64,000 nucleotides of DNA from Alphaproteobacteria bacterium (GTDB lineage Bacteria; Pseudomonadota; Alphaproteobacteria; RF32; CAG-239): assembly GCA_045611785.1 (NCBI GenBank), contig JAZKXV010000026.1, positions 20,382 to 84,381 of the forward strand, given 5' to 3'. The notes below the pieces were generated by a model. That model was not told where the DNA came from, did not search any database, and saw only the letters and a program-made list of their open reading frames with translations. A program made the translations under genes and the position numbers. Of this stretch, positions 38,054 to 42,321 are shown one piece after another. The first letter of the stretch is position 1. The number at the start of each line of letters is the position of its first letter.

Positions 38054-38129
38054 GGGCTCGTAGCTCAGTCGGTAGAGCATTTGACTTTTAATCAAAGGGT
38101 CATGGGTTCGAATCCCGTCGGGCTCACCA
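38054..38129 (+). tRNA. tRNA-Lys (TTT)
   Basis: Cloverleaf, anticodon arm tttga-cTTTtaa-tcaaa, GGTTCGAATCC, CCA; promoter and terminator flank it. Confidence 0.97.
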
Positions 38130-40001: not shown

Positions 40002-40793
40002 ATGAAAAAAATTATTTATTTGTTAGGTGGTATCATTTGCTTATTTGTTTTATATTTAGCAACATTGTTTCTAATGCAAGATAAGTTGCTATTCAAGCCA
40101 GATAATAACTATATTTCGCCACAAAAAGCCAATTTAAGTGATGTTAGCGAAAATGTGTTAACTATGTCTGATGGAACAAAAATTATGACATGGATAAAAG
40201 ATGGCAATAAGAATTTACCTGCCATATTGTTTTTTCACGGAAATCGCGGACAAATTGCAGAATTTGCTCCTCAAATAATGCGTTTTAATAAAGACGGATA
40301 TGGAATTTTTTTAGCTGAATACAGGGGATATGGCAATTCAGGAGGAAAAATAAATCAAGATAAAATGTTTTCTGATGGGGCTGAAGTATATGATTGGATA
40401 AAACAGAGAGGTTATTCTAAAATCATTGTTATAGGATATTCACTTGGTTGTGCAGCATCAATCGGTTTGGCAAGCAAAAAAAATGTTGATGGATTGGCGC
40501 TAATTTCACCTTTCGCTTCGTTATCCCGATTGGTCGCAGAAAAATATCCATTTTCTAATTGGATATTAAAAGATGACTATCCATCCGAGAAAACTATCCA
40601 AAAGTTAACCGCTCCAATTATAATCATTCATGGAACAGCAGATACTTTAGTTCCAGTTCATCATGCAAAAATATTATATGAACAAAGAAAAAATAATGCA
40701 GAGTTACATTTATTGGATGAAAAAGAACATCGAGAAGTATTTTGGGCTGAAGAAACTCCAGTCTTAATCTTTAATTGGTTAAAACGCTTGTAA
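40002..40793 (+). CDS. Membrane-anchored alpha/beta hydrolase
   Basis: FFHGN.G, EYRGYG.S.G, GYSLG, IHGTADTLVP. Confidence 0.88.
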   Translation: MKKIIYLLGGIICLFVLYLATLFLMQDKLLFKPDNNYISPQKANLSDVSENVLTMSDGTKIMTWIKDGNKNLPAILFFHGNRGQIAEFAPQIMRFNKDGYGIFLAEYRGYGNSGGKINQDKMFSDGAEVYDWIKQRGYSKIIVIGYSLGCAASIGLASKKNVDGLALISPFASLSRLVAEKYPFSNWILKDDYPSEKTIQKLTAPIIIIHGTADTLVPVHHAKILYEQRKNNAELHLLDEKEHREVFWAEETPVLIFNWLKRL

Positions 40794-40989
40794 TTAAAAA
40801 AGAAACAATAAAACGGGATTCAAGCATTGCTTATTTAAACAAATATAAAATTCGTACAATAATATTCAAAACGAGTATGACAAGAAAGAGTGCAACATGC
40901 CTGAATAGCTTCAAGGAATGAGACTTTTAGAGTAAACCTAAATCTATGAGAGAAACTACAAAGTTTCTCTCTTTTTATTTTATCTTATA

Positions 40990-41444
40990 AAAGTATATGT
41001 TTCAGCATAGATGACCAACTTGCCTCATCACAAAAAAACACAATTTGTGGTGTTTTTTTGTTGTTAGACTAACTAGGAGAAACGCCATCAGGTTCGGAGT
41101 GGATAGTTGGTGAAAACAAATTATAATAATACACATAAACAAGTTATTATCGGTATAAGTGACGATTTTTTATGGAAAAGCTATATAGTTAAACGTTTGC
41201 AAACACAAAGGGTTGCGGGTTATAGTACTTATGCTGAAACAACAGCAAAAATTCGAGCTCTGTTATATGAAACTAATAGAATAGTTTTACCTCCGATACG
41301 AATTTTAGCAGCTAGCGAACATTGCTGCTATCTCACAGACCGTTTCTTGTGTTAAAGAAATGAATAAAGTATGGTGTAAGCACCTCTTTTCATATAATTT
41401 TCAGTTATAAAAAAAGAGCTATCATTGAGATAGCTCCTTTTTTT
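40990..41444 (+). ncRNA. Candidate large structured non-coding RNA
   Basis: 12-bp long-range stem 40998-41009/41230-41241 enclosing nested stems, further hairpins to a terminator at 41416-41444. Confidence 0.4.
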
Positions 41445-42321
41445 AGAATAAAGGTTCTTTAGATACCCGTGGGAGTATATAGTCCGGGGTAACTCCTTCT
41501 TTTAGTATATATTCTGACAAAGAAAGATTATCTCTATTCATTTCATACTCTGTAACACCGCCTTCTATTACCAAACATCCCTTGATACCGGCTAGTTGTG
41601 CACCTTTGATGTCAGTACGAAGTGTATCACCAATCATTAAGATTTTATCCCTTGGTACATCAGGACAGTATCTTGCAATTAATGCATTGAACACTCTCGG
41701 ATCCGGTTTTCCGTACATGATAACATGACCATTACGCTCAGCCCAAAGCTTAGCGATAGTTCCCTGACGGACAACAAATCTTCCACCTTCATTTGCTACC
41801 ATATCCGGATTAGCGCAGATTAGAGATAAACCGGTCCTAACAAGTTCTTCGACCTGAGCAGTAAAATCACTTATCTCTGTGCTGTCATACAGACAACCTT
41901 CATTGTCTAACAACTGGGGAATGCCACAGTAAATAAAATCTGCCTCATTTACATTGCTTACCAACGCATACAGCGAATTAGCAAACATTGGAGGTATCGG
42001 ATCAGGTTGCTTGAAGTTTGCCGTACCATAGACATAATAATTACGTCCTTTAAGCGGCAAATTTCCTGACAGGATATCTTCATTAGCAAATTGGCCTGAT
42101 GTCAAAAGATCGGTGTAATGAACACCTTTTATAACTCCTTTAGCACCATAACTTTTGATAGTTCCCTCATTACTATCCGTGGTATTGCTCAGAATATAAA
42201 CCTGTTTATTCTGATTAATCCAGCTTTTAAATGTTTCAATCACTGCTTTAGAAACACCTTGTCCAAAGTTGAAAACGCCATAGGCGTCAACAACAATAAC
42301 ATCATAATTGTTTATCATCAA
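41443..42321 (-). CDS. HAD-superfamily subclass IIA hydrolase (TIGR01459-like)
   Basis: VVDAYGV, LSNT, CANPD, YGKPDP, MIGDTLRTDIKGA. Confidence 0.9.
   Translation of the reverse strand: MMINNYDVIVVDAYGVFNFGQGVSKAVIETFKSWINQNKQVYILSNTTDSNEGTIKSYGAKGVIKGVHYTDLLTSGQFANEDILSGNLPLKGRNYYVYGTANFKQPDPIPPMFANSLYALVSNVNEADFIYCGIPQLLDNEGCLYDSTEISDFTAQVEELVRTGLSLICANPDMVANEGGRFVVRQGTIAKLWAERNGHVIMYGKPDPRVFNALIARYCPDVPRDKILMIGDTLRTDIKGAQLAGIKGCLVIEGGVTEYEMNRDNLSLSEYILKEGVTPDYILPRVSKEPLF

Follow-up and report, generated by a model that had tools for sequence, protein, structure and literature searches.

Behind a tRNA gene of Escherichia coli lie the tyrT-distal 178-bp repeats, non-coding tandem units of about 180 nt, each closed by a repeat of the tRNA 3' end; rtT RNA is released from the tRNA operon transcript. 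The accessible part of a preprint links rtT to tyrT and gives the mode of action of rtT as not known (bioRxiv 10.1101/2024.07.17.603846). Another class of elements at tRNA 3' ends, the CIMEs, is described in the accessible parts of three papers as lacking an integrase, being flanked by att repeats of the tRNA 3' end and undergoing tandem accretion (PMC5704250, PMC6323972, PMC3146451).

Here we analysed a 64,000-nt stretch of alphaproteobacterial DNA (the window, by which we mean this whole stretch), in which the region 40990-41444 is very probably a relic mosaic with no working RNA. Three pieces would have been joined in this mosaic: the front third of a module (opening hairpin, leader and 27-nt core), a gene fragment and a shared terminator. 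The module belongs to a family whose nearest described analogue would be, by this comparison, the tyrT-distal 178-bp repeat or rtT RNA of E. coli. Complete module units likewise lie behind a tRNA gene, end in a copy of its 3' end and are often tandem, whereas the window copy shows none of this. The modules differ from tyrT/rtT in that neither five loci with complete units (E up to 0.1) nor the window matched the Rfam RtT family, and in that one module core serves eight tRNA species with matching 3'-end repeats within one bacterial family. With CIMEs the modules share flanking repeats (12-27 nt, from the T-loop to the CCA) and tandem arrays; however, the CIMEs in the accessible parts of those papers are decayed, kilobase-sized remnants of ICEs or IMEs, while the modules measure 150-190 nt without gene remnants, contain conserved covarying helices and have no integrase that tracks them.

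The PATEs of the IS200/IS605 family and the omega-RNAs of TnpB resemble the modules as small, hairpin-rich, strand-specific non-coding units. In the five genomes searched, however, the Y1_Tnp domain was not found in three genomes with many module copies (G004, G064 and G122) or in the genome that contains the window (G000, hereafter its own genome), with fragments only in G003, and the TnpB domain (Cas12f1-like_TNB) had no match in a separately searched set of five genomes. To our knowledge, the IS200/IS605 family does not make 12-27-nt flanking repeats such as the modules have. The lack of a TNB domain in all five genomes also separates the modules from the IscB/TnpB omega-RNA (HEARO), whose model was unmatched on the window. 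The searches for reverse transcriptase and TnpB that the preliminary description of the region had proposed thus gave no match in the window's own genome.

Wider interest attaches to the family itself, which is widespread, structured, protein-free, unmatched in Rfam and found at many tRNA 3' ends. If the module is expressed, it would provide a large natural comparison set for the long-unexplained tyrT/rtT repeats of E. coli; if it is mobile, the question becomes what moves it.

tRNA-end modules in related genomes

The stretch at about 41047-41117 was matched in five other genomes, one of which has three matches spaced 220 nt apart. The relatives' loci contain a recurrent non-coding unit of about 150-190 nt directly behind tRNA genes. 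The unit opens with a long hairpin that includes the CCA of the tRNA, followed by a leader of about 30-40 nt, the core GGTTCGGAG[C/T]GG[A/T]TAGTTGGTGAAAAC, a variable-length hairpin, a second conserved half that forms a small hairpin (GCGAAGTTTGAACCTTACGAC[G/A]CGAGGAGGACCCGC-loop-GCGGGAGTACCC), and finally a repeat of the 3' end of that tRNA, spanning the T-loop AAT to the CCA. This direct repeat starts exactly after the conserved GGGAGTACCC; in units next to the cognate tRNA its length is 12-27 nt. The preliminary description had seen no target-site duplication in the window; complete copies of the family do carry flanking direct repeats, which are the tRNA 3' end.

A 19-nt core pattern was found at 48 loci in species-representative genomes, 47 of which are family members, giving 52 distinct stretches; the remaining one (L033) is a chance match inside an ORF. 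Nearly all 48 loci bear titles such as 'MAG: Alphaproteobacteria bacterium', and the pattern had no match in viral contigs. As determined with ARAGORN, the units stand behind eight tRNA types, namely Glu(ttc), Asn(gtt), Gln(ttg), Thr(ggt), Lys(ttt), Ser(gct), Leu(taa) and Arg(tct). R1, a covariance model built on the module core, detected the module in 92 of the 151 genomes sampled from the taxonomic family to which the window belongs (83 of the 133 high-quality genomes) and in 19 of 23 genera, with about 260 matches in total, 1-14 copies per genome and tandem pairs and triples at a spacing of 169-220 nt. In a class-wide sample, R1 matched one of 150 other genomes, and that genome is 6% contaminated. 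When the five loci that hold complete units were searched against Rfam (E up to 0.1), only tRNA and a weak IS128 match came back. No description of the family was found in the literature searched, which left most subscription journals out of reach.

For 36 aligned units (alignment A2), RNAalifold predicted one long interrupted hairpin (P1-P6) and a small hairpin, P7. Over the 23 predicted pairs, 99.1% of 806 cells are paired, and nine of these pairs show changes on both sides. None of 500 shuffles reached the observed pairing and covariation, and when the partners were slid by 1-3 columns, 29-48% remained paired. Specifically, GAG-Y-GG pairs with GAC-R-CG (C-G in 19 units, U-A in 16 and one broken), and AAAC/GUUU is replaced by GCAC/GUGC, ACAC/GUGU or GCGC/GCGC. 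G-U pairs are common in the fold, one pair being U-G in 30 of the 36 sequences, which assigns the fold to the tRNA-sense strand. As a structured nucleic acid the module is strand-specific, and its terminal address is the tRNA 3' end.

In relatives, the complete module moves from one tRNA gene to another and differs in its number of copies. About 2.9 kb upstream of the window copy, the window contains a tRNA-Lys(ttt) gene (38054-38129, plus strand, by ARAGORN) that is followed by a plain terminator and, by alignment, is an empty site of the family. The orthologous locus of the congener G004 (L006 1361-2073) is near-identical up to the CCA and then continues into three tandem 220-nt modules, the third of which has a differing tRNA-end repeat. 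The tRNA-Lys site thus shows presence/absence variation, empty in the window and filled in G004. Elsewhere in the own genome, a copy with a complete core (66 bits) lies away from any tRNA (L071 1480-1600; G000:C21:20591-20675) and is bounded by a perfect 9-bp inverted repeat (ATTATCGGG / CCCGATAAT) and not by a tRNA-end repeat. A decayed, 3'-truncated copy (33 bits) lies behind tRNA-Arg(tct) (L072 1370-1570; G000:C27). Behind this tRNA species, the unit is intact in G003 (L007) and interrupted in L063.

Two further observations concern the make-up of such loci. In L019 and L064, interrupted modules continue after the core with similar foreign sequence ending in ...GAGTAAAAAATTATAAAAA, which suggests a second element or cargo inserting inside modules. 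Separately, short non-coding units of unrelated sequence also finish with these tRNA 3' ends (...CCA), with a similar hairpin behind them; they were seen at L004 1600-1730 and L066 3090-3240 (both on the minus strand) and in the upstream flanks of L026, L053, L062 and L035. It seems from these sequences that tRNA ends are used in tandem by more than one module family, several of them sharing such ends.

Partners and possible nature of the module family

A terminator-like hairpin precedes each unit, and inspection of the aligned leaders (A2) by eye revealed no conserved promoter. The leader shares 5-9 nt with the 5' strand of the cognate T-stem plus TTCG (mean suffix 5.5, versus 3.7 for non-cognate tRNAs), and the conserved core looks as if it had been set into a T-loop. 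The duplex between leader and repeat has a mean energy of -11.1 kcal/mol for cognate and -10.6 kcal/mol for non-cognate combinations, and a clear advantage of the cognate duplex is limited to some units (Arg, Leu, Asn, Lys, Glu and one Thr). A general closing helix that mimics a tRNA minihelix is not supported, the mean energies of cognate duplexes being no better than those of non-cognate ones.

The module may be a non-autonomous mobile DNA that inserts and amplifies by recombination within the tRNA 3'-end repeat, in which case an enzyme encoded elsewhere (in trans) or host recombination would act. We give this reading about an even chance. The family may also be an rtT-like RNA that arises from tRNA read-through transcripts and whose structure is selected at the RNA level, a serious possibility whose prospects we place somewhat below even. 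The mobile-DNA and the rtT-like-RNA readings are not mutually exclusive. More tentatively, and with some doubt on our part, 41030-41117 might derive from a new kind of protein-less structured element, either an RNA or a single-strand-folding DNA, with an exchangeable tRNA-end address at no fewer than eight tRNA genes and with tandem amplification that needs no dedicated recombinase, reverse transcriptase, TnpB or Y1 transposase. Such an element would represent a self-targeting mobile RNA or DNA, or else a family of rtT-like regulatory RNAs that is widespread in gut Alphaproteobacteria.

We also considered that the modules, the window fragment included, are passive att scars of tyrosine-integrase islands, similar to CIMEs and without a structure-dependent function. 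The flanking repeats, which are the tRNA 3' end, and the tandem arrays fit such scars, as do the accessory and defence-type genes that often lie downstream and a small tyrosine recombinase gene that adjoins one unit. Nevertheless, we judge this explanation unlikely: in 19 genera the sequence and helices are conserved, with compensatory changes, the 55 nearest downstream proteins gave no match to an integrase or transposase family, and the distribution of the small recombinase does not follow that of the module. Specifically, this recombinase of about 220 aa adjoins the unit of L008/L018, and tblastn placed it beside no other unit locus. It occurs in 50 of 151 genomes and is present in module-free genera (g6, 4 of 12 genomes; g11, 3 of 12), while it was not found in the high-copy G004, in G003 or in G006. 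Tyrosine recombinases in general are present in five genomes, the own genome among them, and in all control genomes.

Two candidate mobilisers were rejected, the small tyrosine recombinase for a presence that does not track the module, and the IS200 Y1 transposase because it was not found in three high-copy genomes. Many of the nearest downstream proteins are restriction-modification, Fic, NUDIX or unannotated proteins, and the unannotated ones showed no mutual relatedness. Clustering of 361 ORFs around the 48 loci recovered only syntenic housekeeping genes upstream of particular tRNAs, and no ORF remnants were detected within complete units.

As separate observations, defence and accessory genes are frequent downstream of modules (L022, L028, L029, L036, L043, L053, L056 and L060), including DNA methylases, a PvuII-like endonuclease, ResIII helicases, Fic, NUDIX and AAA_14/DUF4143 proteins, and tRNA ends look, from these sequences, like island hot spots. 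A family of tyrosine recombinases of about 200-220 aa contains several copies with one in-frame stop, that of the own genome among them (G000:C34:5836-6468, L077).

Composition of the 40990-41444 stretch

As the preliminary description had stated, the stretch lies between convergent genes: an alpha/beta-hydrolase gene (40002-40793, plus strand) faces a HAD phosphatase (HAD-IIA) gene (41443-42321, minus strand), both identified from the ORF list and family profile matches. The terminator scan and inverted-repeat search placed an intrinsic terminator with a 10-bp stem and a T run 3' of the hydrolase gene (40948-40980, plus strand), and a bidirectional terminator at 41409-41443 that is common to the gene relic described below and the HAD phosphatase gene. 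The 455 nt in between had been taken as non-coding; about 280 nt of it is a decayed piece of a protein gene with an 82-aa ORF, and the remainder is indeed non-coding. Because one 5.3-kb contig in a public gut metagenome covers 40683-41900 with 9 differences, the mosaic is probably not an assembly artefact; the contig does not count as independent support, since its sample may be the source of the window's assembly. Among the public runs listed for 40500-41900 none is of RNA, and the four that were compared with the window gave DNA contigs.

The module part of the stretch begins with an A/T-rich hairpin of 12 bp (41030-41061, plus strand; all 12 pairs formed between 41030-41041 and 41050-41061), which the inverted-repeat search and alignment identify as a shortened counterpart of the module's opening hairpin. 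Its outer stem, AAAACAC/GTGTTTT, is that of the tRNA-Lys-type units of G004, while the G+C-rich inner part is absent. The hairpin is followed by a variable leader of the tRNA-Lys type (41062-41090, plus strand), recognised in alignments by GCCATC before GGTTCGG, and by the conserved core GGTTCGGAGTGGATAGTTGGTGAAAAC (41091-41117, plus strand), which was defined from the relatives' matches and R1, contains the 5' strands of helices P1-P5 only and ends after GAAAAC. From the hairpin through GAAAAC, 41030-41117 aligns with tRNA-Lys-type units of G004 and other genomes. Opening hairpin, leader and 27-nt core are thus present in the window copy, which lacks the 3' strands of P1-P5, the small hairpin (P7) and a closing tRNA 3'-end repeat; pseudogene sequence follows after 41117. 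With its filters off, R1 scored the window copy at 11.4 bits, with the 3' partners broken, compared with 66-139 bits for complete copies; with default filters it did not match the window copy. Contigs of public gut metagenomes with other copies align from 41052 or 41090 to 41119 and then diverge into the normal second half of the module. These alignments indicate that 41030-41117 is a truncated member of the tRNA-end module family. The earlier suggestion of a miniature element therefore stands in so far as this part is a truncated small element, though with boundaries other than those first proposed.

The second piece, at 41095-41372 on the plus strand, is an internal fragment of a pseudogene, supported by tblastn, DNA alignment, Pfam and tblastx; the similarity crosses frame breaks and a stop, and both gene ends are missing. 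It corresponds to about residues 104-192 of a 334-residue protein. Paralogous DNA in the own genome (C18) is 70% identical and that in the congener G006 is 77% identical, and both matching stretches lie mid-gene in intact genes, of 334 aa in the own genome and 348 aa in G006. The intact paralog combines a nucleoside-deoxyribosyltransferase-like domain (Nuc_deoxyri_tr2) with a metallophosphatase domain (Metallophos_2) by Pfam, and the window fragment covers only the linker between the two domains of the parent protein. With tblastn, residues of about 104-162 matched 41107-41283 with 32 of 59 identical positions for the own paralog and 38 of 59 for the congener (54% and 64%), while residues of about 164-188 matched 41286-41360 in another frame and through a stop (15 of 25 and 16 of 25). 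The joint E values across the two frames are 7e-20 for the own paralog and 2e-23 for the congener gene. DNA alignment revealed a 1-nt deletion between 41283 and 41284 and a second one near 41343-41346; a TAG lies in frame at 41313-41315 in the shifted frame, and homology to the intact genes stops near 41372. The flanks of the paralog loci share nothing with the window beyond the fragment (tblastx). Protein-coding conservation in homologs, which the preliminary description had set against an RNA, was hence found by tblastn and DNA alignment, and about 280 nt are gene-derived.

The junction between module and gene lies within a short similar stretch (module GGATAGTTGGTGAAAAC versus gene GAATGGATGGCAAAAAC). 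Illegitimate recombination or a deletion would have removed the 3' two thirds of the module together with about the first 300 nt of the gene, and illegitimate recombination is hinted at because module and gene resemble each other at the junction. Conservation of the stretch in relatives is confined to 41047-41117 and the gene fragment.

Within the fragment, an 82-aa ORF (41107-41355, plus strand; ORF list and tblastn) is made up of 59 homologous residues and a frameshifted tail. The ORF could be expressed, since GGAG stands 10 nt 5' of its GTG at 41110 and a promoter-like TGGATA-16-TATAAT (10 of 12 positions; 41100-41127) straddles the module/pseudogene junction just 5' of it. Together with the open frame and the terminator that follows, these signals would suit a working small gene, a domesticated fragment whose stems serve as regulatory leader and terminator. 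We regard such a gene as very improbable: the homology runs past the frameshift into the other frame and a stop, which is the mark of recent decay, and the ORF contains nothing but the inter-domain linker and has no match in Pfam or NCBIfam. We treat the 82-aa ORF as a relic because its homology to full-length proteins crosses frames.

The stems that had been read as a large RNA are real as sequence. All of those named in the preliminary description were recovered by the inverted-repeat search, including the local hairpin of the module, the ACCAACT/AGTTGGT stem at 41014/41105, the terminator at 41409-41443 and several short local stems. Folding of 40990-41444 is better than that of shuffled controls (z = -3.86 for the plus strand and -3.03 for the minus strand; none of 100 shuffles as good), and a second test with 200 shuffles gave z = -3.18 for the whole stretch. 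This excess is due mostly to two local hairpins, with z = -2.2 without the 3' terminator, -0.5 for 41062-41400 and -1.1 for the pseudogene part. The 12-bp long-range inverted repeat is perfect (12 of 12). Its 5' arm (40998-41009) has no homolog in the own genome or in relatives, as determined by inverted-repeat and homolog searches, while DNA alignment shows that its 3' arm (41230-41241) consists of the pseudogene codons TAT GCT GAA ACA (Y-A-E-T), in whose place the intact homologs carry TATAATGAAACT and TATTTTGAAACC. A perfect inverted repeat of at least 12 nt occurred in 27 of 2000 dinucleotide shuffles of the region; such a repeat is unusual for a single region, though not across the 64-kb window. 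Most likely, the long-range stem is a fortuitous pairing of unrelated upstream sequence with four codons of a dead gene. The whole stretch may nonetheless have a structural role, because its fold beats shuffles and the 12-bp repeat is uncommon.

If the 12-bp stem closed a real, large structured ncRNA, whether over 40990-41444 or 40998-41241, this would account for the fold scores on both strands and for a stem so rare among shuffles. We nevertheless attach hardly any probability to it. The 3' arm and most inner stems fall within codons inherited from a protein gene, z drops to only -0.5 once the two local hairpins are removed, neither the own genome nor 41 related genomes gave a homolog of the region around the 5' arm, and no Rfam family matched the stretch at threshold. 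The result for the window is a correction: a seemingly ornate RNA of 450 nt resolves into a pseudogene, a broken repeat and terminators, an example of decayed coding sequence imitating a large ncRNA.

The further proposal of an orphan retron-like msr-msd RNA, which rested on the inverted repeat and on the G that directly follows its 5' arm and would be the branching G, can for practical purposes be dropped, in that RVT_1 had no match in the own genome (100% complete by markers), a search of 40600-41600 at E up to 10 returned no retron family of Rfam, no conservation of the arms was found in the own genome or in relatives and the 3' arm is pseudogene sequence. No reverse transcriptase was seen among the window ORFs scanned, as the preliminary description had noted, and two of five related genomes have an RVT_1 match elsewhere.

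The relic mosaic, our preferred reading of the stretch, lies 3' of the hydrolase gene. This gene is common to close relatives, with synteny ending at about 40800. G001, the closest relative, has an IS200-type Y1 transposase gene 3' of the orthologous hydrolase in place of the mosaic (L066 2528-2983, G001:C20; Pfam E 2e-37), and the spot is therefore a dumping ground for mobile DNA.
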